IMG/VR virus record: IMGVR_UViG_2875683775_000003 | Origin: a virus | Lineage: Duplodnaviria; Heunggongvirae; Uroviricota; Caudoviricetes | Reading direction: 5' to 3' (one strand) | DNA length: 16,662 bases | Part shown: one piece after another, positions 1,954-16,662 of the stretch | Position numbering within the stretch: position 1 is the stretch's first letter | Layout: the number at the start of each line of letters is the position of its first letter | Translations under genes and position numbers: made by a program | Notes under the pieces: generated by a model | The model's database searches: none | Seen by the model: the letters and a program-made list of their open reading frames with translations, nothing else | What the model was told of the DNA's origin: nothing

Positions 1954-4175
1954 ACTGCCTCCTTGATTTGCCTGTCATTTAATTCTTTAAACCAGACTCT
2001 GAAATTTCTGATGTGTCCAAACAAATGACGCGTTCCTGCTGCGGTCTGCCCACCAAACCGGTACGATGTTGCTGTAACTCCAAATATTTTACCATTAAGG
2101 TTTGTTGTATAATTACCATTGCATATTGCATTTACTGATAAATCAGATTTAGCTCTCACACCCACAATGAACCTTTCTCCATCTGAGGAAATTTGTGGCT
2201 GAACCATTCCTACGTTGGCGCTTATCTTTCCTGTTGAAACAAACCCCAGCGATAAATAATTATCATCAATACTGTGCCCTCCAACATCAAATATCCTTGG
2301 CGCAACATTGGGCGGTGTACTCCAGTTCCTCCTTACTTCGCACAATACTGTAAAAGGCCGTGTTGACAGGTTATTCGCCGAGGGGATAGTAACCACATCA
2401 CTTGCGCGTGTTGTTGGCATTGTAGTTACAATAAATGACGATGCCGTATTGCCCAGTTCAATTTGCGGCGTCGTCATGGTTAATGTTGAGTCATCATAGA
2501 ATGGCTCATTACTTATTTTATTTGTCATATAAAAAGCACAGTTAACGGTATCAATGTCCGTATTAGCTGTATAAGTGGCCTCATAGTAGGTCCACTCGCC
2601 CTGTTGTTCAGCTTTGGCTGTTATAAGGGATGTATTACCGCTTACTGTTGCGATCCGGGTATCCAGATCAAGATAAGAGTCAGCAGAGAATGTATCTGTT
2701 CCACCAATAATAACTGAAACTCTTAACCTGCATCGTGCTTTAGCGCCTTTAACCCGGCACGAAAAAGTGAAACATTCACCACTTGCCAGCGGGAATCTGT
2801 CTGCTGCAACCACACCATGCACAGTATAGCCACCTGTTGTTCCCACTATACTTTCCGTGGGTGTCACCGTGGCATAATTGAACCCCTGTTTATCAGTGCC
2901 AAATGTTTTATTCAGTGCGGAATGAACAGTCCATGAGTCTGGTTTATTTGAGTTCCTCAGATAATTTGTCCTCTGTCCTTCAATCAATAAGCCATCGCGC
3001 TCAAATCGCGGTTCGTCAACTTCAGCAAGCTTGAGTTGGCCGGACTTATTAATATACGTTGCTGTTGAAGCACGTTTAAACTTAACAATCTTGTCGCCTG
3101 GCATTGTTATTTCATCGTCACCAATAACAATCTTTTTATAAGATGGCGAAAAACCCGTAATCATATCCAGCGAATCGTTAAACGGTATCCACACATCAGG
3201 CAGCGGCGGCACTATATTCGCACAGGGCTCTGCAGTCACTTCCGCTGCGGATTCTGCGCGGTCTGCCGCCTTTTCAGCTCGTGTCGCTGCCGACAGAGCC
3301 TCATCCTTTTTCTGCCCGGCCTTTGTTGCGTCTGCTGCGGCCTCCCGCGCTTTTGTGGTGGCGACTCCGGCATTTTCAGCGGCTGACTCTGCATTACGGC
3401 GGGAAGCCTCTTCACTGTCTGCGGAGGCTTCTTCTGACGCACGGGCATTTGTCTCTGAACGTTCTGCCGCTGTTGCTGCGTTTTGTGCGGCTGTTTTTGA
3501 AGAAGCTGCCGCTTTCGCGCTGTTACCTGCATTCGTCTCTGATGTTTTCGCCGCGTTCCTGGACGATGCCGCTGCTGTTTCTGATTTCTTTGCTGCCGCT
3601 GCGCTCTGAGAGGCGGCTTCAGCGTTGCGTGCTGCTTCTTCCACCATTGCCTCAAAACGACGCAATGCCTCCGGCATGACATCATCTTCCGTCATGGCAC
3701 CGAGAAAATCATTCAGCGTACCAGGTCTGGAACCTTCATAGACGGTAATGGTTCCGGCATGTGAAGGCGGAAAACCTTCAACCAGCAGGGTGACGCTGTA
3801 CTGGCCATACTCGACATCCATGCTGTAACGCCCGGCTTCATCCGGATTTTCAGAGGCTACCGTGTTCACCAGTACCGTGGTGCTGTTACGCTTTGCCTTC
3901 AGTTGAATAGTGCAGTTCTGTATTGGTTTTCCCGCACCATCTTTCAGCACACCTGAGATTTTTACTGCTGCCATATTCGGAGCTGACGGCCCCGGTACGA
4001 TATCTTCGGTTTTCGCCTCAGGCGCAACTGGCGCGGTTACCGTCTGATCTTTTGCTGCGGCGTCAGCTTTTGCGTTTTTTGCTACCGCAGGGATAAAACC
4101 TACCTGCTCACGGGATACAATATCCAGGGCGGTATAAATAGTCGGGATCAACCCGGTCAGGGTATTTCCAGCCAT
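1950..4175 (-). CDS. Side tail fibre protein: lambdoid Stf-like N-terminus with a divergent C-terminal receptor-binding region
   Basis: 741 aa from ATG at 4175 (RBS AAGGAA 9 nt upstream); the track ORF start at 4268 is upstream read-through. The N-terminal ~330 aa is Stf-like (MAGNTLTGLIPTIYTALD... followed by an Ala/Ser/Glu-rich coiled-coil repeat). The C-terminal ~400 aa (from ...PLPDVWIPFNDSLD... to ...HIRNFRVWFKELNDRQIKEAV) is unlike the K-12 StfR tip I recall. Confidence 0.85.
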   Translation of the reverse strand: MAGNTLTGLIPTIYTALDIVSREQVGFIPAVAKNAKADAAAKDQTVTAPVAPEAKTEDIVPGPSAPNMAAVKISGVLKDGAGKPIQNCTIQLKAKRNSTTVLVNTVASENPDEAGRYSMDVEYGQYSVTLLVEGFPPSHAGTITVYEGSRPGTLNDFLGAMTEDDVMPEALRRFEAMVEEAARNAEAASQSAAAAKKSETAAASSRNAAKTSETNAGNSAKAAASSKTAAQNAATAAERSETNARASEEASADSEEASRRNAESAAENAGVATTKAREAAADATKAGQKKDEALSAATRAEKAADRAESAAEVTAEPCANIVPPLPDVWIPFNDSLDMITGFSPSYKKIVIGDDEITMPGDKIVKFKRASTATYINKSGQLKLAEVDEPRFERDGLLIEGQRTNYLRNSNKPDSWTVHSALNKTFGTDKQGFNYATVTPTESIVGTTGGYTVHGVVAADRFPLASGECFTFSCRVKGAKARCRLRVSVIIGGTDTFSADSYLDLDTRIATVSGNTSLITAKAEQQGEWTYYEATYTANTDIDTVNCAFYMTNKISNEPFYDDSTLTMTTPQIELGNTASSFIVTTMPTTRASDVVTIPSANNLSTRPFTVLCEVRRNWSTPPNVAPRIFDVGGHSIDDNYLSLGFVSTGKISANVGMVQPQISSDGERFIVGVRAKSDLSVNAICNGNYTTNLNGKIFGVTATSYRFGGQTAAGTRHLFGHIRNFRVWFKELNDRQIKEAV

Positions 4176-4273
4176 AATTAAATATTCCTTAAAAATTTGC
4201 GTAATTGTGAATAGATGGAGTAATGAGCTATCCAGCCCTGACACCAGCTCCCATCCGGAAGCTGACAAATGTG

Positions 4274-5038
4274 TTAATCAACAATTGTGATACCGTCTTT
4301 CAATGCGTTTTGCTTACCTGCAACATCCAGTGCATCAAAAGCAGAGCGTTTCATCGTTTTCTGACCAATATCATGCTGTGTCGGACGGGAGCCGCCGCCA
4401 TTGTTGCCACTGGCTTTCAGGATGTAGTCTTTCTGAGGGTAATTTTCGACGAGGAACTCCAGCGCCTCATCAAACTGCGCCAGTTCGCCAGGCTTCGCGC
4501 GGGAATAAATTTTGTTGCCGGAAGCGTCATAAGCAACGATCTTCCCTTCTTCCACTTTGAATGCCTGCCCGAAGCGGGCTTGTAATAAATCTGCCGGGAT
4601 CGCAATTTTATCGGCAATATATTTTGAACCCGCAAAACTACCGCCAATCATAGAATCGTAAAGCTGCGTCTCCAGCATCTGAGAGCGTTGCTTTTCTTCA
4701 TCTAATTGCTGCTGAAAATTTTTCGTAATTTCTGCCTTAACCTGGTCAACCTGTCCCGCATCGATCAGCTTTTTCTGGTCGATTTTTGACAGCATTTCCA
4801 GTGCCTCGATCGCCTTCTTCGGGTCTTCGATAGCGGCAAACTTAGCCAGTTTTTCCTCTGCAGCTTCTTTAGCCAGGCGATGATTTTTTGCCTCGCCATT
4901 AAGCTCTGTAATTTTTTTTATCGCCAGCGGTGCATCGAAGCCGATTTCTTTACCATCGTCGTGCACATAAACTGGCAGGCCAGCAGTATCAATTTCTGCG
5001 TATTGTTTTCCGTTAATCTCGACCGTTTTCAGTTTCAT
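4274..5038 (-). CDS. Phage protein of unknown function, coiled-coil rich with a Gly-rich C-terminal segment
   Basis: 254 aa from ATG at 5038 (MKLKTVEINGKQYAEID...). The track ORF start at 5110 is a GTG that overlaps a terminator hairpin and is unlikely to be used. Lys/Glu/Ala-rich heptad-like middle region. Occupies the position where K-12 Rac carries the ydaY pseudogene (recollection). Confidence 0.6.
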   Translation of the reverse strand: MKLKTVEINGKQYAEIDTAGLPVYVHDDGKEIGFDAPLAIKKITELNGEAKNHRLAKEAAEEKLAKFAAIEDPKKAIEALEMLSKIDQKKLIDAGQVDQVKAEITKNFQQQLDEEKQRSQMLETQLYDSMIGGSFAGSKYIADKIAIPADLLQARFGQAFKVEEGKIVAYDASGNKIYSRAKPGELAQFDEALEFLVENYPQKDYILKASGNNGGGSRPTQHDIGQKTMKRSAFDALDVAGKQNALKDGITIVD

Positions 5039-5095
5039 ATTAGTACCTGGTTTAAGTCTTCCGACAGTTACGCTGCTCACCATCCGGATCGCAGC

Positions 5096-5122
5096 AATAA
5101 AAAAGGCCACCCGAAGGTAGCC
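5096..5122 (-). terminator. Candidate intrinsic terminator downstream of the ParB-like gene
   Basis: On the minus-strand RNA: GGCUACC-UUCG-GGUGGCC (7-bp stem with one G-U pair, UUCG tetraloop) followed immediately by UUUUUUAUU. Confidence 0.55.
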
Positions 5123-5142
5123 TGTTGTAATAAATGATTTAT

Positions 5143-5574
5143 TTAAATCCCTGCTTTTCTGAATACCTGTGCATCACGCTCACGGAGTTGCTTCAGCGTC
5201 AGCCATTCGCCTTTATCGGTGTAAAATTCATCTGGCGACATACCGCCATCCCGAATCAGCTTTGCCCGGGTTTCCCCCACAATCTGTTTTTGTCTGGTGT
5301 AAGGCTGACGCAAAAACCATTCCCTGTAGGTTGTATCTCCGGCCAGAACAATGACCGGAACAGAATCCATTTTGAGCATTTCAGCCGCCATAACACGACC
5401 GTGACCCGCAATAATTTCGCCCTTTTCGTCAATCAGCACCGGATTAGTCCAGCCGAATTGCTTAATACTTTCTACCAGTTGTGCCACCTGCTCAGTACTG
5501 TGCGTCCTGGCGTTGTGCGCATACGGTGACAATTCTTGTAATGGGCGATAGACTATCTTTAATTTCTCGCTCAT
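5143..5574 (-). CDS. ParB-like nuclease domain protein
   Basis: 143-aa ORF with an AAGG RBS. The N-terminal 80 aa (VYRPLQELSPYAHNARTHSTEQVAQLVESIKQFGWTNPVLIDEKGEIIAGHGRVMAA) has the hallmarks of the ParB/Srx N-terminal nuclease-like fold. Position corresponds to ynaK of K-12 Rac (recollection, unverified). Confidence 0.7.
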   Translation of the reverse strand: MSEKLKIVYRPLQELSPYAHNARTHSTEQVAQLVESIKQFGWTNPVLIDEKGEIIAGHGRVMAAEMLKMDSVPVIVLAGDTTYREWFLRQPYTRQKQIVGETRAKLIRDGGMSPDEFYTDKGEWLTLKQLRERDAQVFRKAGI

Positions 5575-5590
5575 ACAGCCTTGCTTTATG

Positions 5591-5625
5591 AATAAAACGC
5601 ACCCCAGCAGCCAGTGCTACTGGGG
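5591..5625 (-). terminator. Candidate terminator downstream of trkG
   Basis: 6-bp GC stem (CCCCAG/CUGGGG, 12-nt loop) followed on the minus-strand RNA by UGCGUUUUAUU. The stem is weak, so this is tentative. Confidence 0.35.
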
Positions 5626-5711
5626 GCGGAGGTGTTGCTGGTAAAGTTAGGTATTGGATCAATGAGTGAGTCAATATAATATTAAACTCACAATTATAAA
5701 TCAGCCATATA

Positions 5712-7170
5712 TTAGGAGCGCCAAAAAAAACCTGAAAACAATATAATAACAGGATAAATTTCAAGGCGACCAAGAATCATAGCTATGCACATTAAATATT
5801 TTGCAATGTCATTAAGCACTCCGAATGACGATGCAGTAGCCCCAAAACCTAATCCCATATTATTAATACATGCAGCCACTGTTGCAAATGATGTAAGAAA
5901 ATCATATCCCATACCATTTAACACCAGTATAAAAAACACCGTGAAGAGAGTATAAAGAAAAAAGAAACTCCATACAGACCTCATTACACGATCTGTAACT
6001 ATCTTCCCTCCTACATTTACACTCAACAACGCTCTGGGATGAGAAAGCTGATTTATCTCGTGTTTGCTTTGTTTGAAAAGTATAAGAAATCGAAGTGACT
6101 TAATTCCACCACAAGTTGAACCTATACATCCCCCAAAGAAACTTGACGACAGCAAAAACACTATCGTGTGCGTGGGCCAGCTTGCATAATCCTGCGTAGC
6201 TAAACCATTATCAGTGAGCATGGAGCTGGCAAGAAAAAACGAATGAATAAAACTTCCATGCAAGTCATACATACCTATATGCCAGACCTGGAAAGAGGTA
6301 ACAATGATCACCCCTAAGGCTATTAACAGAAAGAAACGAAGTTCAATATCTCTGATTAAAGGTTTTATCGTTTTCCTGCTAATAACAATATACCAAAGAG
6401 TGAAGTTGAAAGCCGATAGCAGGGAAAAAGAACCAGCCACCAGCTCAACCAAATAGTTATTAAAATATCCGATACTCTCGCTATGAGTTGAGAAACCACC
6501 AAGCGAAACTGTGGAAATCCCGTGACAAATAGCATCAAACAAAGGCATTCCTGCAAGTCTATAACAGACAATACAAGCAATACCTAATAAAGAATAAGTT
6601 ATCCACAGTGTCCGTGACGTATCGGCCAGGCGGGGAGTGAGTTTGTCATCCTTAAATGGCCCCGGCATTTCTGACTGATAAAGCTTTGCACCACCAATAC
6701 CCAATAATGGCAATACAGCAACCGCCAGAACAATAACTCCTAAACCACCTATAAAATTTAACTGTGACCGATAGTACAAATATGCCCGAGGTAATGAACT
6801 AACATCATCAATTACAGTTGCTCCTGTTGTTGTTATTCCAGAAACCCCTTCAAACAGAGCATCAATGAACGTTAAATTAAGTTCTGAGTCAATCCATAAA
6901 GGGAATGCACTAATAACAGAAAACAAAATCCAAAACATTACAATTATAATAAACCCATCACGGGTACGTAATTGAATGCCAGATTTCTTAGTTGTATACC
7001 ACGCTCCGCCACCAATGCAAAAAAAATATAACGAAAGTTATAAAGAAAACGAATAGGCTTTTTTCTTTATAAAACAATGCTACAACCATTGGTGGCAACA
7101 TTGAAAGACTATAGAGCCAAACCAGGAACCCACACATATGAGTAACAACTCTTACATGAGATGTATTCAT
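5712..7170 (-). pseudogene. trkG: TrkG/TrkH-family potassium uptake protein gene, disrupted by a +1 frameshift
   Basis: An N-terminal 50-codon fragment (MNTSHVRVVTHMCGF...FVIFF, within track ORF 6988..7188) and a C-terminal 408-aa ORF (5712..6938) lie in different frames. The frame of the large ORF is open upstream to 7037 and reads ...FFCIGGGAWYTTKKSGIQLRTRDGFIIIV. The two frames meet at an A8 run at 7019-7026; removing one A gives a single 485-aa product, the length I recall for K-12 TrkG. Low GC, consistent with a moron. Confidence 0.85.
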
Positions 7171-7307
7171 ATCTAAATATTCTTTCAATTATAACCACCT
7201 TGCTGCAATATTATGATTATACTGTATAAAATTTAACTCCTCTTAGATCTTACTTCACTGTTCCTTATGAAACAATCATCAAAATGAATCATATTGTAGT
7301 TAAGATT

Positions 7308-7772
7308 TTACTTTAAACACTGTTCGGTTATGTATTGCTGAGCACCTTCAAGTTGGGCCTGCATCATTACCAGTCGTTCCCGGAGGGTGAAATAATCCCG
7401 TTCAGCGGTGTCTGCCAGTCGGGGGGAGGCTGCATTATCCACGCCGGAGGCGGTGGTGGCTTCACGCACTGACTGACAGACTGCTTTGATGTGCAACCGA
7501 CGACGACCAGCGGCAACATCATCACGCAGAGCATCATTTTCAGCTTTCGCATCAGCTAACTCCTTCGTGTATTTTGCATCGAGCGCAGCAACATCACGCT
7601 GACGCATCTGCATGTCAGTAATTGCCGCGTTCGCCAGCTTCAGTTCTCTGGCATTTTTGTCGCGCTGCTCTTTGTAGGCGGTGGCGTTATCACGGTAATG
7701 ATTAACAGCCCATGACAGGCAGACGATGATGCAGATAACCAGAGCATAAATAATCGCGGCGACTCTGCTCAC
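7308..7772 (-). CDS. rzpR: Rz-type i-spanin (inner-membrane spanin subunit)
   Basis: Track ORF 7308..7787. The product closely resembles lambda Rz (N-terminal membrane anchor [24 protein letters not shown], coiled-coil body). The likely start is a GTG overlapping the endolysin stop, which gives 154 aa; the start is uncertain. The symbol is by analogy with K-12 Rac. Confidence 0.7.
7367..7552 (-). CDS. rzoR: Rz1-type o-spanin lipoprotein, embedded out of frame within Rz
   Basis: 61-aa ORF with lipobox LVVVGC and a proline-rich segment ([16 protein letters not shown]), fully nested in the +1 frame of the Rz gene. This is the classic Rz/Rz1 arrangement. Confidence 0.75.
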
Positions 7773-8302
7773 TGATCTATCCCCCAACAGGCTAATGCGC
7801 TTTCCTGGTCACGACGAATAACCTGTCCATAGCAGTTATTTGAACGTATGCGGCAATCGCGCCCACCATCTTTTATCCACCAGCGAATCGCCTCGCATGC
7901 ACCCTTACGATCACCGGCATTCAGCCGCTTATAAAACGTCGACGGGAAACACTTACCGGGGCCAATGTTATAGGGACAAAATGACGCTATACCCGCTTTC
8001 TGTGGTTCGGTCAGTGGTACTTTAATATTGCGCTCCACCCATGCCAGCGCCTTATCACGTTCAATAGCGTTAACCTGGTCGCATTTTTCCTTCGACAGCC
8101 TCATTCCCGGTATGACGGGCTTACCATCCACCATTGTGGCACCACGACAGATGGTCCATATACCGGAACCATCGCGGTATGCCGTTGTGTGGTTACCTTC
8201 TTTTTCATCCAGAAACTGGTCGAGAATATCAGGCGCAGGCGCACCGACGGCAATCAGTGCCAGAACGGCAGCCGACAGGCCGTATCTGATTTTTGCGTTC
8301 AT
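7769..8302 (-). CDS. SAR endolysin, T4-lysozyme-like (GH24), P21 R-type
   Basis: 177 aa. N-terminal weakly hydrophobic signal-anchor-release segment ([15 protein letters not shown]) followed by a lysozyme catalytic region ([20 protein letters not shown]). Overall resemblance to phage 21 R and DLP12/Qin endolysins. No obvious SD sequence. Confidence 0.8.
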
Positions 8303-8407
8303 GGATATTTATCAGGATTTATCGGTTTCTGAACCCTGGATATGTTTATCTGTCCCGGCCTGTTGAATCAGGCAAGGAATAGTTAAATACAATAGAGAGG
8401 ATTGTTT

Positions 8408-8680
8408 ATGGACAATAGCACCATTTCTCTACAGGAGTTGCTCGACTGCATTTCCAAGCTTCGGGATGATGTAAATGCCCTTACTGTCGCATTTTCATAT
8501 CTGGCATTCTCAATTCCCAAGGAACAAATGCAACCAACACTGGCATCGCTCCAGCTTGAATCACTCAACCCCAAATGGTCCCAGCAACAACAAAATTCTT
8601 TCAAGTGGCTGGCGGTATTACTGGAAGAAAAATATGCTGGTGAAATTACCATTTCGGCGGAGTCTTCAGTGAACCAGTAA
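8408..8680 (+). CDS. Hypothetical protein encoded antisense within the lysis cassette
   Basis: 90 aa from ATG at 8408 with RBS GAGAGG about 7 nt upstream; the track ORF begins at a TTG at 8402. Protein-like composition and no internal stops, while the minus strand of the same interval has only an implausible Cys/Ser-rich frame. Overlaps the 3' end of the 8646..8990 gene by 35 nt. No family recognised. Confidence 0.4.
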   Translation: MDNSTISLQELLDCISKLRDDVNALTVAFSYLAFSIPKEQMQPTLASLQLESLNPKWSQQQQNSFKWLAVLLEEKYAGEITISAESSVNQ

Positions 8681-8990
8681 TTCTTCCCGGCAGTTTTCCT
8701 TTGTAGGTTATCCACACACCCTGCGCCTCTAAAATTATGGGGCGCTTTTCCGGTGACTGCTCATCCCCTTCACATAACCCTGCAGCAACATCCAGGAAGA
8801 CCTGTCTGATGCTCCTTCTGGCTGCTGCCTCATAAAACTCCAGCGCGGCACCTTCAACACGGTCCAGCGAGATGTCCAGGTCTAAAATTTCACCGTCAAA
8901 GCGTTTTTTGTCCCGTAACGCTAAAGTTACCGTAACTTTATTCTCAAAATTGCGGATCCCTTTCACAATCAGTTCATAGTTTTGAGTCAT
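8646..8990 (-). CDS. Hypothetical lysis-cassette protein, positional equivalent of ydfR (DUF1327) of Qin
   Basis: 114-aa ORF with a strong RBS (GGGGAGAG), starting 4 nt after the pinholin stop. In Qin, as I recall, a DUF1327 gene (ydfR) sits between holin and endolysin. Homology is not verified, and the C-terminal ~25 aa may be an altered tail. Confidence 0.55.
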   Translation of the reverse strand: MTQNYELIVKGIRNFENKVTVTLALRDKKRFDGEILDLDISLDRVEGAALEFYEAAARRSIRQVFLDVAAGLCEGDEQSPEKRPIILEAQGVWITYKGKLPGRITGSLKTPPKW

Positions 8991-8994
8991 TGAA

Positions 8995-9183
8995 TTACTC
9001 TCCCCGTGCAGCCTTACGCTTATCTTCTTTAATCTTGAAATAAAGATTTGTCAGATACGTCAACAGGCCAAACACCAGACTACCCAGCACACCTATTGCT
9101 GCCCACTGTGAGGGCGTGACTCTATCGAGCAACTGTAAAAACCAGTAGCCAGCACTGCCTGCGGAGGTGCCATAGGCGACACC
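8995..9183 (-). pseudogene. 5'-truncated S21-type pinholin gene
   Basis: The minus-strand frame encodes [62 protein letters not shown]-stop, which resembles the phage 21 pinholin from about residue 8 onward. Upstream in frame there is no ATG/GTG/TTG before a stop; the sequence runs into the ydaG RBS and start on the other strand. Confidence 0.65.
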
Positions 9184-9205
9184 CGGCGTTAAGGGGAGAG
9201 ATAAG

Positions 9206-9340
9206 ATGGTGCATTACGAAGTAGTTCAGTATTTGATGGATTGTTGCGGTATCACTTACAGCCCGGCTGTGCAGGCTTTACGTAGCAACGACTGGGATCT
9301 CTGGCAAGCAGAAGCCTCTATCCGCAACAACAAGATGTGA
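9206..9340 (+). CDS. ydaG: Small Rac early-region protein (44 aa)
   Basis: ATG at 9206 with RBS AAGGGGAGAG; 44 aa ([18 protein letters not shown]...). Below the ORF-track length cutoff. Symbol assigned from length and position as I recall K-12 Rac. Confidence 0.6.
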
Positions 9341-9350
9341 GGTGCGAAAA

Positions 9351-9506
9351 ATGCAAAAAATCGACCTCGGCAACAACGAATCCCTGGTGTGCGGCGTGTT
9401 CCCCAACCAGGATGGAACGTTCACTGCCATGACGTATACCAAAAGCAAAACATTTAAAACCGAAACTGGTGCGCGCCGATGGTTGGAGAAGCACACAGTA
9501 AGCTAA
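9351..9506 (+). CDS. ydaF: Small Rac early-region protein (51 aa)
   Basis: ATG at 9351 with RBS GAGGTG; 51 aa (MQKIDLGNNESLVCGVFPNQDG...). The 3' end overlaps the sieB 3' end (convergent). Symbol assigned from memory. Confidence 0.6.
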   Translation: MQKIDLGNNESLVCGVFPNQDGTFTAMTYTKSKTFKTETGARRWLEKHTVS

Positions 9507-9991
9507 CGATTAAAACGTCTACTCCTGCTGTTCCAGAATAACTTCATAAAATGGGAGTATTTTTCGGTGACGAGATAATAAGAACAGTTTGCGCTATCAC
9601 TCTGATGTTGAATGATGCCCTTCCGTTCTAATTTTTTCATAACCGGGTTACGGCAAGGAGAAGTGATAATAAGATTTCCTGTTTTAAGGAAATCTTTAAA
9701 TACAGCGATTTCTTTCTCAGATAAACGAAGCAATACTCGTTGCTCTGGTAGTAATGAATAATGCTTTTGAATATGCGCTCGCAATCTTGAGAAGGAAATG
9801 GCGACCACGAAAGAAAAGGCAAAAACGATAATCTGAAAGAGCCAAGGTATTTCAGTATAAGCATTGAATGCGACAGTAAACTCTTTCGGTATCAGCCAGA
9901 GAGTGAGACCAAAAATGATAATCGTATACATAAGTCTTTCGAGTGGCTCGTTAGCAAAAAGTTTCAACAATGGAGTAAATACATCCAACAT
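9503..9991 (-). CDS. sieB: Superinfection exclusion protein B
   Basis: 162 aa from ATG at 9991 (MLDVFTPLLKLFANEPLERLMYTIIIFGLTLWLIPKEF...). Membrane protein matching Rac SieB in length and sequence as I recall. The track ORF extends to 10114 as upstream read-through. Confidence 0.85.
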   Translation of the reverse strand: MLDVFTPLLKLFANEPLERLMYTIIIFGLTLWLIPKEFTVAFNAYTEIPWLFQIIVFAFSFVVAISFSRLRAHIQKHYSLLPEQRVLLRLSEKEIAVFKDFLKTGNLIITSPCRNPVMKKLERKGIIQHQSDSANCSYYLVTEKYSHFMKLFWNSRSRRFNR

Positions 9992-10432
9992 ATCAATAAC
10001 TCTCAACTGTAAGGGTATTGAAATGTTAACACAAGCTCTCGCTGTAGGGGTATAGCCGAGACCACCGAAGCCCGGAGGTGGTGAAATAAAACCGGGCACA
10101 ACACGAAGGCGCATTTCCGATATCCATAAAGAGTCGGTCTTGTCTGTTAAATTTAAATGGTGGGAGTGCGCCTCCGGTTGTAAATAACGACATTGCTGTG
10201 TGTAGTCCTGGCGGCATCAGTTTTTTTCTTGAAGTTCGGCTGATGTCCGCCCTTTTTAAAGTGAATTTTGTGATGCGGTGAATGCGGCTAAGCGCACGTG
10301 GCACAGTTAAAAGTCATGTTAGTCCTTATTGGTTTGGGTGGGAAAGCCGACTGTAATTGTTAACTGGTTGCAGTCACCTGGAGGCACCAGGCACCGCATC
10401 AACAAAGTTCATTTGTAAAAATGGAGATAATT

Positions 10433-10654
10433 ATGATTGCACATCACTTCGGAACTGATGAAATACCACGTCAGTGTGTGACTCCTGGCGATTATGTTCT
10501 TCATGAAGGCCGGACATATATTGCCTCGGCAAACAATATTAAAAAGCGAAAACTATATATTCGTAACCTGACCACAAAAACATGCATTACTGACCGCATG
10601 ATTAAAGTCTTCCTCGGTCGTGATGGTTTACCTGTAAAGGCGGAGTCATGGTGA
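10433..10654 (+). CDS. kilR: KilR, a cell-division (FtsZ) inhibitor of Rac
   Basis: 73 aa from ATG at 10433 ([35 protein letters not shown]...), RBS GGAG 6 nt upstream. Confidence 0.85.
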
Positions 10655-10824
10655 TGACTAAGAAAATAAAATGTGCTTACCACCTTTGCAAAAAAGACGT
10701 TGAAGAAAGCAAAGCTATTGAAAGAATGCTTCACTTCATGCACGGGATTTTATCAAAAGACGAACCGAGAAAATATTGCAGTGAAGCTTGTGCCGAAAAA
10801 GACCAGATGGCACATGAACTTTAA
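10654..10824 (+). CDS. ydaE: Small Cys/His-rich protein YdaE (putative metal-binding)
   Basis: 56 aa ([56 protein letters not shown]). The ATG overlaps the kilR stop (TGATGA). Below the ORF-track cutoff. Confidence 0.7.
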   Translation: MTKKIKCAYHLCKKDVEESKAIERMLHFMHGILSKDEPRKYCSEACAEKDQMAHEL

Positions 10825-10898
10825 TTAATTGACTATTCGAAACTGAATTTATGCCAGAAATGGCAGGTATTCGCTCAACCTTAATTAAGGAGAAAAAC

Positions 10899-11174
10899 AT
10901 GATTACCAATTATGAAGCCACTGTTGTAACTACCGATGACATTGTTCACGAGGTGAATCTGGAAGGAAAGCGCATTGGCTACGTAATTAAAACAGAAAAT
11001 AAAGAAACCCCATTCACTGTGGTTGATATCGATGGTCCATCAGGCAACGTAAAAACACTTGATGAAGGTGTCAAAAAAATGTGCCTGGTGCATATCGGAA
11101 AGAATCTGCCCGCAGAAAAAAAAGCCGAATTTCTGGCAACTCTAATTGCAATGAAATTAAAAGGTGAAATCTGA
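10899..11174 (+). CDS. racC: RacC protein
   Basis: 91 aa from ATG at 10899 (MITNYEATVVTTDDIVHEVN...), RBS AAGGAG 6 nt upstream. Confidence 0.8.
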   Translation: MITNYEATVVTTDDIVHEVNLEGKRIGYVIKTENKETPFTVVDIDGPSGNVKTLDEGVKKMCLVHIGKNLPAEKKAEFLATLIAMKLKGEI

Positions 11175-11179
11175 AAGAA

Positions 11180-11204
11180 ATAGCCTGCGTATGGCGCAGG
11201 CTAT
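11180..11204 (+). other. GC-rich stem-loop in the racC-recE intergenic region
   Basis: 10-bp perfect stem (ATAGCCTGCG / CGCAGGCTAT) with a 5-nt loop, 6 nt after the racC stop. No U-tract follows, so it is not a canonical intrinsic terminator. Confidence 0.45.
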
Positions 11205-11275
11205 GAACAGTGTGTATCCGGCAAGATCATTCACTGAACAAAACGAATTTTAATCTGAGTTGAGGTTAAAAAACA

Positions 11276-13876
11276 ATGAGCACAAAACCACTCTTCCTGT
11301 TACGGAAAGCGAAAAAATCATCCGGTGAACCTGACGTCGTCCTGTGGGCAAGCAACGATTTTGAATCGACCTGTGCCACTCTGGACTACCTGATCGTTAA
11401 GTCAGGTAAAAAACTGAGCAGCTATTTTAAAGCTGTTGCCACGAATTTTCCTGTCGTTAATGACCTGCCCGCTGAAGGTGAGATCGATTTTACCTGGAGT
11501 GAACGCTATCAACTCAGCAAAGACTCCATGACATGGGAACTAAAACCGGGAGCAGCACCAGACAACGCTCACTATCAAGGCAATACCAACGTCAACGGCG
11601 AAGACATGACTGAGATTGAGGAGAATATGCTACTCCCAATTTCTGGCCAGGAACTGCCCATTCGTTGGCTTGCTCAACACGGCAGCGAAAAACCGGTAAC
11701 GCACGTTTCACGCGACGGACTCCAGGCATTACACATTGCTCGGGCTGAAGAACTACCGGCTGTTACTGCCCTGGCTGTTTCCCACAAAACCAGCCTGCTC
11801 GACCCGCTGGAAATTCGCGAACTCCACAAACTGGTTCGTGACACTGACAAAGTTTTCCCTAATCCTGGTAATTCAAACCTGGGACTGATAACTGCTTTTT
11901 TCGAAGCATACCTGAACGCTGACTACACCGATCGAGGACTGCTGACAAAAGAGTGGATGAAGGGTAATCGTGTTTCACACATCACTCGCACGGCTTCCGG
12001 TGCTAATGCTGGCGGCGGAAACCTCACCGATCGCGGCGAAGGTTTCGTACACGATCTGACGTCACTGGCGCGCGACGTAGCCACTGGCGTACTGGCCCGT
12101 TCAATGGATCTGGACATCTATAACCTTCATCCGGCACACGCTAAACGCATTGAGGAAATTATCGCTGAAAATAAACCGCCCTTTTCTGTTTTCCGCGACA
12201 AATTCATCACCATGCCTGGCGGGCTGGATTATTCCCGCGCCATCGTGGTTGCGTCCGTAAAAGAAGCACCAATTGGGATCGAGGTCATCCCCGCGCACGT
12301 CACTGAATATCTGAACAAAGTACTGACTGAAACCGATCATGCCAACCCTGATCCGGAAATCGTGGATATTGCCTGCGGTCGCTCCTCTGCCCCGATGCCG
12401 CAGCGAGTAACAGAAGAAGGAAAACAGGATGATGAAGAAAAACCGCAACCATCTGGAACAACGGCAGTTGAACAGGGAGAGGCTGAAACAATGGAACCGG
12501 ACGCAACTGAACATCATCAGGACACGCAGCCGCTGGATGCTCAGTCACAGGTAAATTCTGTTGATGCGAAATATCAGGAACTGCGGGCAGAACTCCATGA
12601 AGCCCGGAAAAACATTCCATCAAAAAATCCTGTCGATGCCGATAAATTGCTTGCTGCATCACGTGGTGAATTTGTTGACGGAATTAGCGACCCGAACGAT
12701 CCGAAATGGGTAAAGGGGATCCAGACTCGCGATTGTGTGTACCAGAACCAGCCAGAAACGGAAAAAACCAGCCCAGATATGAATCAACCTGAGCCAGTAG
12801 TGCAACAGGAACCGGAAATAGCCTGCAATGCCTGCGGCCAGACTGGCGGGGATAACTGCCCTGACTGTGGTGCGGTGATGGGCGACGCAACATACCAGGA
12901 AACATTCGATGAAGAGAGTCAGGTTGAAGCTAAGGAAAATGATCCGGAGGAAATGGAAGGCGCTGAACATCCGCACAATGAGAATGCTGGCAGCGATCCG
13001 CATCGCGATTGCAGTGATGAAACTGGCGAAGTCGCAGATCCCGTAATCGTAGAAGACATAGAGCCAGGTATTTATTACGGAATTTCGAATGAGAATTACC
13101 ACGCGGGTCCCGGTATCAGTAAGTCTCAGCTCGATGACATTGCTGATACTCCGGCACTATATTTGTGGCGTAAAAATGCCCCCGTGGACACCACAAAGAC
13201 AAAAACGCTCGATTTAGGAACTGCTTTCCACTGCCGGGTACTTGAACCGGAAGAATTCAGTAACCGCTTTATCGTAGCACCTGAATTTAACCGCCGTACA
13301 AACGCCGGAAAAGAAGAAGAGAAAGCGTTTCTGATGGAATGCGCAAGCACAGGAAAAACGGTTATCACTGCGGAAGAAGGCCGGAAAATTGAACTCATGT
13401 ATCAAAGCGTTATGGCTTTGCCGCTGGGGCAATGGCTTGTTGAAAGCGCCGGACACGCTGAATCATCAATTTACTGGGAAGATCCTGAAACAGGAATTTT
13501 GTGTCGGTGCCGTCCGGACAAAATTATCCCTGAATTTCACTGGATCATGGACGTGAAAACTACGGCGGATATTCAACGATTCAAAACCGCTTATTACGAC
13601 TACCGCTATCACGTTCAGGATGCATTCTACAGTGACGGTTATGAAGCACAGTTTGGAGTGCAGCCAACTTTCGTTTTTCTGGTTGCCAGCACAACTATTG
13701 AATGCGGACGTTATCCGGTTGAAATTTTCATGATGGGCGAAGAAGCAAAACTGGCAGGTCAACAGGAATATCACCGCAATCTGCGAACCCTGTCTGACTG
13801 CCTGAATACCGATGAATGGCCAGCTATTAAGACATTATCACTACCCCGCTGGGCTAAGGAATATGCAAATGACTAA
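11276..13876 (+). CDS. recE: Exodeoxyribonuclease VIII (RecE), full length
   Basis: 866-aa ORF with RBS TGAGG. Central acidic low-complexity region and C-terminal nuclease domain. Length and sequence match RecE of Rac. Confidence 0.95.
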
Positions 13877-14678
13877 GCAACCACCAATCGCAAAAGCCGA
13901 TCTGCAAAAAACTCAGGGAAACCGTGCACCAGCAGCAGTTAAAAATAGCGACGTGATTAGTTTTATTAACCAGCCATCAATGAAAGAGCAACTGGCAGCA
14001 GCTCTTCCACGCCATATGACGGCTGAACGTATGATCCGTATCGCCACCACAGAAATTCGTAAAGTTCCGGCGTTAGGAAACTGTGACACTATGAGTTTTG
14101 TCAGTGCGATCGTACAGTGTTCACAGCTCGGACTTGAGCCAGGTAGCGCCCTCGGTCATGCATATTTACTGCCTTTTGGTAATAAAAACGAAAAGAGCGG
14201 TAAAAAGAACGTTCAGCTAATCATTGGCTATCGCGGCATGATTGATCTGGCTCGCCGTTCTGGTCAAATCGCCAGCCTGTCAGCCCGTGTTGTCCGTGAA
14301 GGTGACGAGTTTAGCTTCGAATTTGGCCTTGATGAAAAGTTAATACACCGCCCGGGAGAAAACGAAGATGCCCCGGTTACCCACGTCTATGCTGTCGCAA
14401 GACTGAAAGACGGAGGTACTCAGTTTGAAGTTATGACGCGCAAACAGATTGAGCTGGTGCGCAGCCTGAGTAAAGCTGGTAATAACGGGCCGTGGGTAAC
14501 TCACTGGGAAGAAATGGCAAAGAAAACGGCTATTCGTCGCCTGTTCAAATATCTGCCCGTATCAATTGAGATCCAGCGTGCAGTATCAATGGATGAAAAG
14601 GAACCACTGACAATCGATCCTGCAGATTCCTCTGTATTAACCGGGGAATACAGTGTAATCGATAATTCAGAGGAATAA
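13869..14678 (+). CDS. recT: RecT single-strand annealing protein
   Basis: 269 aa from ATG at 13869 ([18 protein letters not shown]...), overlapping the recE stop by 8 nt. The track ORF start at 13812 lies upstream inside recE. Confidence 0.95.
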
Positions 14679-14685
14679 TTCAGCC

Positions 14686-14724
14686 TGGCGGTGTAATGCA
14701 CCGCCAACTTGAAATATTTTTTAT
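14686..14724 (+). terminator. Candidate terminator/attenuator hairpin between recT and ralR
   Basis: 8-bp stem TGGCGGTG / CACCGCCA with a 5-nt loop, followed 9 nt later by TATTTTTT. The spacer is longer than ideal, so this is tentative. Confidence 0.4.
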
Positions 14725-14734
14725 GAGAAAAATT

Positions 14735-14929
14735 ATGAGATATGACAATGTTAAACCATGTCCATTTTGTGGTTGTCCATCAGTAACGGTGAAAGCCATT
14801 TCAGGATATTACCGAGCGAAGTGTAACGGATGCGAATCCCGAACCGGTTATGGTGGAAGTGAAAAAGAAGCACTCGAAAGATGGAATAAACGAACCACTG
14901 GAAATAATAATGGAGGTGTTCATGTATAA
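14735..14929 (+). CDS. ralR: RalR, a small DNase toxin of a type I toxin-antitoxin pair (restriction alleviation)
   Basis: 64 aa from ATG at 14735 (MRYDNVKPCPFCGCPSVTVKAISGYYRAKCNGCESRTGYGGSEKEALERWNKRTTGNNNGGVHV). An in-frame ATG at 14723 would add 4 residues. Confidence 0.85.
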   Translation: MRYDNVKPCPFCGCPSVTVKAISGYYRAKCNGCESRTGYGGSEKEALERWNKRTTGNNNGGVHV

Positions 14930-15131
14930 AATTACCGCCACTATTGAAAAGGAAGGTGGCACTCCTACTAACTGGACAAGATATTCAAAATCTAAACTAA
15001 CGAAATCAGAATGCGAAAAAATGCTCTCAGGTAAAAAAGAAGCAGGCGTTTCCAGAGAGCAGAAAGTAAAACTGATAAATTTTAATTGCGAGAAACTTCA
15101 GCCCTCGAGAATTGCATTGTATTCAAATTAA
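14922..15131 (+). CDS. ydaC: Small Rac protein YdaC
   Basis: 69 aa from ATG at 14922 (MYKITATIEKEGGTPTNW...), RBS GGAGG 5 nt upstream. Overlaps the ralR 3' end by 8 nt. Confidence 0.75.
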   Translation: MYKITATIEKEGGTPTNWTRYSKSKLTKSECEKMLSGKKEAGVSREQKVKLINFNCEKLQPSRIALYSN

Positions 15132-15209
15132 AACTTCATAGCTGATTATTAATAATCAACATCGGGCGTCAATTTCAGTCTAACATTGGCGCCTGCCAGA
15201 GGTGATGCG

Positions 15210-15425
15210 ATGGCACAAGTAATCTTTAATGAAGAGTGGATGGTTGAATACGGCCTGATGCTTCGCACTGGTCTGGGGGCCAGACAAATTGAAGCATACC
15301 GCCAGAACTGTTGGGTGGAGGGCTTCCACTTCAAACGAGTATCTCCTTTAGGTAAGCCAGACAGCAAACGAGGGATTATCTGGTACAACTATCCAAAGAT
15401 AAATCAGTTTATCAAAGACTCATGA
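15210..15425 (+). CDS. xisR: Excisionase-like protein
   Basis: 71 aa from ATG at 15210 ([35 protein letters not shown]...), RBS AGAGGTG. Its stop lies 1 nt before the integrase ATG. Confidence 0.8.
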
Positions 15426-15426
15426 T

Positions 15427-16662
15427 ATGTCTAAATTACCAACAGGTGTCGAGATTAGAGGTAGATACATTCGCATCTGGTTCATGTTTCGAGGAAAACG
15501 ATGTCGGGAAACATTAAAAGGCTGGGAGATTACAAACAGTAATATTAAAAAGGCCGGAAATTTAAGATCGCTGATAGTTCATGAAATAAACTCCGGTGAA
15601 TTTGAGTATTTAAGACGTTTTCCCCAGTCCAGCACTGGGGCAAAAATGGTGACAACGAGAGTCATAAAAACGTTCGGAGAGCTTTGTGATATCTGGACAA
15701 AAATTAAAGAGACAGAGTTAACAACAAACACAATGAAGAAAACGAAATCACAATTAAAAACACTCAGAATAATAATTTGTGAAAGTACCCCGATATCACA
15801 TATTCGTTATAGCGATATCTTAAACTACCGGAATGAACTGCTGCATGGAGAAACGCTTTACCTGGATAATCCAAGATCCAACAAAAAAGGAAGAACCGTG
15901 CGCACAGTTGATAACTATATCGCCCTGCTCTGTTCGCTGTTGCGTTTTGCGTATCAGTCGGGATTTATATCAACTAAACCATTTGAAGGAGTAAAAAAAT
16001 TACAGCGAAACAGAATAAAGCCTGATCCGTTATCTAAAACAGAATTCAATGCATTAATGGAAAGTGAAAAAGGACAGAGCCAGAACTTGTGGAAATTTGC
16101 CGTTTACTCAGGACTTCGTCACGGGGAACTGGCAGCTCTGGCGTGGGAGGATGTGGATCTCGAAAAGGGAATAGTGAATGTCAGAAGAAACCTGACGATA
16201 CTTGATATGTTCGGTCCCCCAAAAACAAATGCCGGGATCCGAACAGTAACACTACTGCAGCCTGCTCTTGAAGCACTGAAGGAGCAATACAAACTGACCG
16301 GGCATCATCGCAAAAGCGAAATCACCTTTTATCATCGGGAGTACGGCAGAACCGAAAAGCAAAAACTGCATTTTGTTTTCATGCCCAGGGTGTGTAACGG
16401 AAAACAAAAACCTTATTACTCGGTAAGCAGTTTGGGGGCAAGGTGGAATGCAGCAGTAAAACGTGCTGGTATTCGCCGCCGTAATCCGTACCATACGCGG
16501 CATACTTTTGCCTGCTGGCTGTTGACGGCAGGAGCGAACCCGGCATTTATAGCCAGCCAAATGGGGCATGAAACTGCGCAGATGGTGTATGAAATTTACG
16601 GTATGTGGATTGATGACATGAACGACGAACAGATAGCCATGTTGAATGCGCGGTTATCGTAG
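15427..16662 (+). CDS. intR: Tyrosine integrase of the Rac prophage
   Basis: 411-aa ORF. C-terminal tyrosine-recombinase region with conserved R...H..R...Y residues (...HTRHTFACWLL... and ...YEIYGMW...). The stop codon is the last codon of the window. Confidence 0.95.
   Translation: MSKLPTGVEIRGRYIRIWFMFRGKRCRETLKGWEITNSNIKKAGNLRSLIVHEINSGEFEYLRRFPQSSTGAKMVTTRVIKTFGELCDIWTKIKETELTTNTMKKTKSQLKTLRIIICESTPISHIRYSDILNYRNELLHGETLYLDNPRSNKKGRTVRTVDNYIALLCSLLRFAYQSGFISTKPFEGVKKLQRNRIKPDPLSKTEFNALMESEKGQSQNLWKFAVYSGLRHGELAALAWEDVDLEKGIVNVRRNLTILDMFGPPKTNAGIRTVTLLQPALEALKEQYKLTGHHRKSEITFYHREYGRTEKQKLHFVFMPRVCNGKQKPYYSVSSLGARWNAAVKRAGIRRRNPYHTRHTFACWLLTAGANPAFIASQMGHETAQMVYEIYGMWIDDMNDEQIAMLNARLS

Follow-up and report, generated by a model that had tools for sequence, protein, structure and literature searches.

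The gene trkG in the stretch of viral DNA analysed here (16,662 nucleotides, hereafter the window) is divided between two reading frames at a run of eight identical bases. This raises the question of whether the gene has truly been lost, is switched on and off by a slippage-prone tract, or is intact in the strain and has been misread during sequencing or assembly, three possibilities that the preliminary description of the window had placed side by side.

Prophage setting and identity of the trkG gene

The window aligns from end to end with the genome of E. coli B REL606 (NC_012967.1, 1409170-1425830) and, on this comparison, is a B-type Rac prophage. Over the 16,662 bases the two sequences differ by three SNPs (positions 361, 494 and 15102) and one inserted base; this sole indel in 16.6 kb is located in the trkG tract, and no SNP falls within trkG. 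Once the tract is repaired to seven thymines (T7), the trkG DNA is 100% identical to REL606 trkG, annotated at the matching position. Since so few differences separate the window from REL606, a match restored by a change of one base is not a matter of chance.

According to the REL606 annotation, the genes of the prophage are arranged in the following order: ydfK, pinR, tail-fibre genes, ynaK, trkG, an Rz-like lysis gene, lysozyme, essD, sieB, kilR, racC, recE, recT, ralR, rcbA, xisR and intR. The annotation marks two of them, ynaK and one tail-fibre assembly gene, as partial. The trkG gene is placed between the Rz lysis gene and the ynaK/ParB-terminase genes. It is the same gene, in the same slot (Rz - trkG - ynaK), as the Rac trkG of E. 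coli K-12 and B, from which the window copy differs in one extra T and a product of 60 residues. In the contig MNKV01000020.1, ttcA adjoins intR, showing that the prophage is integrated beside ttcA. Compared with the Rac map of K-12, positions 9200-10450 of the window seem to lack the racR-ydaS/T/U/V/W block for immunity and replication. In this part of the B-type Rac, the holin gene essD is found near ydaF and sieB.

The repaired TrkG aligns over residues 7-485 with the Vibrio TrkH structures 4j9u/3pjz (E = 6e-121), and the 408-residue downstream part matches the Pfam family PF02386 (TrkH). An intact ORF of about 485 residues with all the pore repeats is not found at the locus, as the frame breaks after codon 50; judged from its sequence, the window trkG is a pseudogene of the TrkH/TrkG family (PF02386) and not a functional member.

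The gene has a GC content of 38.0%, whereas the remainder of the window has 45.6%; over positions 5600-7400 the GC profile remains at 0.33-0.40, compared with about 0.50 in the lysis genes next to trkG. The trkG stop codon is followed after about 90 nt, at 5602-5625 on the - strand, by a terminator-like hairpin of 10 pairs, seven of them G-C, with a T-rich tail; this hairpin, called by a consensus scan alone (4 sites against 1.7 expected), is likely the 3' end of the trkG transcription unit. A promoter-like site is present at 7317-7288, such matches being no commoner than in shuffled sequences. The slot between Rz and ynaK, the low GC content and the terminator-like hairpin make it reasonable to call trkG a moron, as had been proposed, that is, a cargo gene of deviant GC content inserted between phage modules, its promoter being putative.

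Reading frames on both sides of the homopolymer tract

On the + strand, positions 7019-7026 hold a run of eight A (A8, checked by regular expression) within ...CCACCAATGC AAAAAAAA TATAACG..., corresponding to T8 on the coding (-) strand of trkG. The +1 insertion falls in this run, where REL606 has T7. The normal T7 allele covers codons I48-F49-F50-C51 (ATA TTT TTT TGC) of a gene of 1,458 nt encoding 485 amino acids; the whole pseudogene in the window takes up 1,459 nt (5712-7170, - strand), from the ATG at 7170 to the stop codon at 5714-5712. The native frame opens with this ATG and continues through MNTSH...FVIFF for 50 codons up to the tract. Past T8, ten out-of-frame codons (LHWWRSVVYN) are followed by TAA at 6990-6988. 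The truncated product of the frameshifted allele (6988-7170, - strand) thereby consists of 50 native and 10 aberrant residues, and gene callers lengthen it to a TTG at 7188, giving 66 amino acids. TrkG residues 51-485 (CIGGGAWY...FWRS) lie in the next frame, which begins right at the tract (5712-7018, - strand) and is translated as CIGGGAWYTTKK...FWRS before the stop at 5714-5712.

The frames traced on both sides of A8 confirm the earlier claim that trkG is broken by a +1 frameshift in a homopolymer, and the removal of one A does yield, as stated, a 485-residue protein, identical to REL606 TrkG (WP_001097897.1). The N-terminal codons and a 408-residue ORF had also been said to meet exactly at the run. 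This is correct for the frames and the homology and incorrect for the ORF, because the first start codon of the downstream frame is the ATG at 6938 (Met78), 81 nt 3' of the tract, and the ORF extends from 6938 to 5712. No Shine-Dalgarno-like sequence is present in the 15 nt scanned 5' of this ATG (TTATTATAATTGTA ATG), which makes re-initiation at Met78, with synthesis of a functional N-terminally shortened TrkG, appear unlikely.

A second T8 run (A8 on the + strand) is located at 5723-5730, within the last trkG codons GGT TTT TTT TGG (G-F-F-W). This run is native, being in frame in both the window and REL606 and identical in sequence in the latter, and indicates that trkG tolerates a native T8; slippage here would alter only the last few residues of TrkG.

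Tract length in other genomes and assemblies

The BLAST low-complexity mask blocks seeding inside the run, and the tract searches used flanked queries of 68 and 70 nt. With the 70-nt T8 query spanning the tract, the locus was found in 1,523 of 5,426 complete E. coli genomes. None of these 1,523 genomes contains the exact T8 70-mer, and eight A are present in just two of them, NMBU_W05E18 (NZ_CP042878.1) and TK3887 (NZ_AP044767.1), so that the comparison of trkG across E. coli, which the preliminary description had called for, shows T7 in about 1,523 complete genomes with two exceptions. With the T6 query, no carrier of T6 in the complete genomes ranked higher than the T7 matches. Among 106 prophage copies in IMG/VR, examined with a T6-T9 pattern, 103 have T7, one has T6, one has T8 and one has an N in the tract.

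Exact-peptide look-ups in a collection of 15 billion proteins located the T8-specific 66-residue peptide in 11 other public contigs (Logan/ENA), in at least four prophage contexts, the T6-specific peptides in 54 contigs (14 + 7 + 33) and the T9-specific peptide in one contig. In the alignment of 107 full-length trkG copies, T8 occurs on at least 3-4 haplotypes and T6 on at least two; for most frameshifted haplotypes, and for all of the main haplotype groups, there is a T7 twin without any other difference. The recurrence of T6, T8 and T9 on several haplotypes with T7 twins indicates that the trkG tract is, by this comparison, a recurrent hotspot of ±1 slippage at which T7 is nearly fixed. The earlier suggestion of a slippage-prone tract is thus upheld in the mutational sense, whereas that of an evolved ON/OFF switch is not, given the overwhelming predominance of T7 (about 99% or more).

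The trkG genes of NMBU_W05E18 and TK3887 resemble that of the window in the change from T7 to T8 at the same tract and in being 1,459-nt pseudogenes, labelled "frameshifted" by PGAP. There are, however, clear differences between them: both genomes have C instead of T at 7053, depart from the window by 20-21 SNPs over 2.3 kb and possess another lysis cassette, rrrD/essD. The other haplotype and the other lysis cassette indicate that their T8 events are very probably independent of that in the window. A slip in the opposite direction is found in a Logan contig (DRR849131), where a B-type trkG of the same haplotype has independently acquired T6 (-1 frameshift); a junction in this contig joins window position 5205 to 2662, deleting DUF6651 and the tail-fibre region.

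The 408-residue ORF was also considered as a marker of frameshifted alleles and rejected, as 7 of the 10 places listed for it (L017-L023, from ENA ERZ761546-57 and Logan SRR1577778) stop short of the tract and are therefore uninformative on its length. In L017-L022, window positions 5697-6946 are enclosed between the inverted linkers TTAGAATTCTACTC / GAGTAGAATTCTAA. The insert is a trkG piece of 1,250 bp that opens 8 nt ahead of Met78 and closes 15 nt beyond the stop codon. A Nextera mosaic-end adapter is additionally present in L017, L018, L020 and L021, the first two of which continue into unrelated genes, and L023 has a shorter insert (5709-6946) with the same 5' linker. These sequences look like an engineered construct or spike-in and not a natural locus.

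Origin and consequences of the inserted base

The explanation considered best, with a probability of about 80%, is a genuine and very recent +1 replication slip (T7 to T8) in codons 48-51, essentially abolishing function and probably near-neutral. A change of +1 or -1 in a mononucleotide run is a classic product of replication slippage, and such slippage would have added one T to the T7 tract of this low-GC accessory K+/Na+ transporter gene. The lack of any further decay, trkG being otherwise unchanged relative to REL606, dates the event as very recent. Ribosomes starting at the native ATG would stop after 60 residues, before any of the four pore-forming repeats; with the product ending ahead of the TrkH pore-repeat region, the transport function should be lost. 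The loss is expected to be tolerated in view of the coexistence of TrkG with TrkH, the Na+ influx it brings and its partial repression by H-NS; it would probably be close to neutral, if not fully so. As a rule, E. coli possesses TrkH, a chromosomal paralogue, along with Kup and Kdp, and these uptake systems would cover for TrkG; for trkH this redundancy is an expectation for E. coli generally, the window covering the prophage only. Published work describes TrkG as mediating Na+-dependent K+ uptake and also Na+ uptake, as coexisting with TrkH and as partly repressed by H-NS (PMC9898762).

Homopolymers are classic sites of sequencing and assembly errors, and the strain could in truth have T7 and an intact trkG. 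The tract does cause trouble in some assemblies: an IMG/VR contig (IMGVR_UViG_2609460218_000012, matched at 7065-7098 of its locus, - strand) contains literal N bases, one of which closes the T-run of trkG. Moreover, the exact T8 allele is absent from complete RefSeq genomes, and the sole named NCBI assembly in which it occurs, GCA_002092895.1, is a draft described as low in quality, with 4,180 ambiguous bases (PMC6256561), although the compared region of this draft contains no N. Against an error stands the reproduction of T8, in a comparison made at the level of assemblies, outside the source of the window. Contig MNKV01000020.1 of the draft is 100% identical to window positions 3956-16662, including T8 and the SNP at 15102, and, ending inside the window, represents a separate assembly. 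A Logan contig from SRR5493702, corresponding to four samples/runs, is 100% identical to positions 3947-7412 and unbroken through the tract. T8 also occurs in contigs of other samples named in the MEGAHIT and SPAdes style (k119_, k141_, NODE_), taken from these names to be short-read assemblies, in which runs of eight are usually called reliably. A one-off assembly error is therefore unlikely. The independent assemblies with T8 may all derive from one laboratory stock, and a systematic homopolymer miscall common to them could in principle give the same picture; taken as a whole, the error explanation, one of the three put forward at the outset, is improbable. Of these three, genuine pseudogenisation is best supported, as the same T8 recurs in independent assemblies and the lesion is annotated as frameshifted in two complete genomes.

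According to another explanation, the T8 allele is a leaky or reversible hypomorph, in which some full-length TrkG is supplied by RNA polymerase slippage (U8 to U7) or by a +1 slip of the ribosome on UUU UUU U, and reversion from T8 to T7 generates ON/OFF heterogeneity in the population. A programmed -1 shift of the ribosome on U UUU UUU was also considered and discarded, because the TrkG frame, once a base has been inserted, is restored by a +1 shift or by an mRNA shorter by one base and not by a -1 shift. In E. coli, base deletion at a sense-strand T8 brought the expression of a +1-frame GFP reporter downstream of it back to about 10%, and RNA polymerase slipped preferentially on poly(T) over poly(A) (PMC6260861); a genome survey sets the usual threshold of efficient slippage at 9 nt, one more than the trkG run, while reporting runs of eight as productive in some bacteria (PMC1088944). 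The T8 of trkG being on the sense strand, with the frame restored by deletion of one base, some full-length TrkG is plausible. To the genes rescued by transcriptional slippage (Thermus dnaX A9, Shigella mxiE T9, Citrobacter tssM and the endosymbiont poly(A) tracts), trkG is comparable in having a sense-strand poly(T) run of a length at which base deletion by E. coli RNA polymerase has been measured. It departs from them in that its run counts 8 nt, not 9 or more, and in that its out-of-frame arrangement is not conserved, its homologues being in frame with T7. The natural occurrence of T6, T7, T8 and T9 and the position of the tract early in the gene recall the contingency loci of Neisseria, Haemophilus and Campylobacter, where a change in the length of a 5' mononucleotide run switches the frame, and trkG does possess such a 5' coding tract (T8, codons 48-51). 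Those loci, however, have long tracts of which both states are frequent and under selection, whereas the trkG variants are rare mutational noise: neither in the 1,523 complete genomes nor in the 106 IMG/VR copies are ON and OFF lengths both common. The T7 share of about 99% or more argues that the out-of-frame state is not kept by selection and that the tract is not an evolved switch, the T7 run itself being accounted for by two TTT Phe codons in a gene of 38% GC. In addition, the unbroken Logan contig would argue against a large mixed T7/T8 population in that run. The hypomorph explanation is accordingly rated as distinctly unlikely, and it is doubtful that T8 is other than null, with low-level full-length TrkG arising through U deletion and ±1 slips turning the tract into an accidental dimmer or reversible switch for a prophage-borne, Na+-leaky K+ transporter.

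Least probable is that the loss of TrkG was selected, for instance against Na+ influx, with the homopolymer as the easiest target. The uptake of Na+ by TrkG, the lowered Na+ sensitivity of a Na+-efflux-deficient strain after trkG deletion (PMC9898762) and the independent recurrence of frameshifts at the tract speak for such a selection. Nevertheless, a recurrence of about 0.1-1% fits mutation pressure alone, and no frameshifted allele has spread widely, each being matched by a T7 twin that is identical or nearly so.

On the favoured reading of a recent replication slip, for which loss of function, neutrality and mechanism are all deduced, the source strain should have little or none of the Na+-dependent K+ uptake and Na+ influx that are specific to TrkG. 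The gene and the type of lesion are known, and public genomes already include annotations of the same T7 to T8 lesion as frameshifted. It is an ordinary finding, a recent homopolymer-slippage pseudogene of an accessory gene in a prophage that is cryptic and already decaying, and matters little beyond annotation. As the tract is a ±1 hotspot, frameshift calls there need to be checked against reads and neither trusted nor "corrected" blindly. A mildly interesting point is the possible leakiness of the T8 allele, and the tract could serve as a natural test of how much expression E. coli retains despite a +1 insertion in a T8 run.

Two minor observations concern the draft and the remaining differences from REL606. 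MNKV00000000 is described as a 2016 draft of E. coli C (PMC6256561), and its contig MNKV01000020.1 carries ttcA-intR-Rac with the T8 trkG. In both complete E. coli C genomes, uspF adjoins ttcA and Rac is absent (NZ_CP020543.1, 2492170-2493716; NZ_LT906474.1, NCTC122, 2491242-2492788), which leaves an inconsistency in the draft, either in its accession or in its strain label. The SNPs at 361 and 494, in the ydfK-pinR spacer, are both found, at 100% identity, in a second, paralogous copy that B-strain genomes carry (REL606 1601166-1601361, about 175 kb away and probably in the Qin prophage). This match points to gene conversion between the prophage copies or to cross-talk in assembly and makes both SNPs uninformative as lineage markers. 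The SNP at 15102 corresponds to RcbA S61P (rcbA codon 61), likewise ruled out as a lineage marker, since the allele is a common one in public assemblies (213 index blocks).
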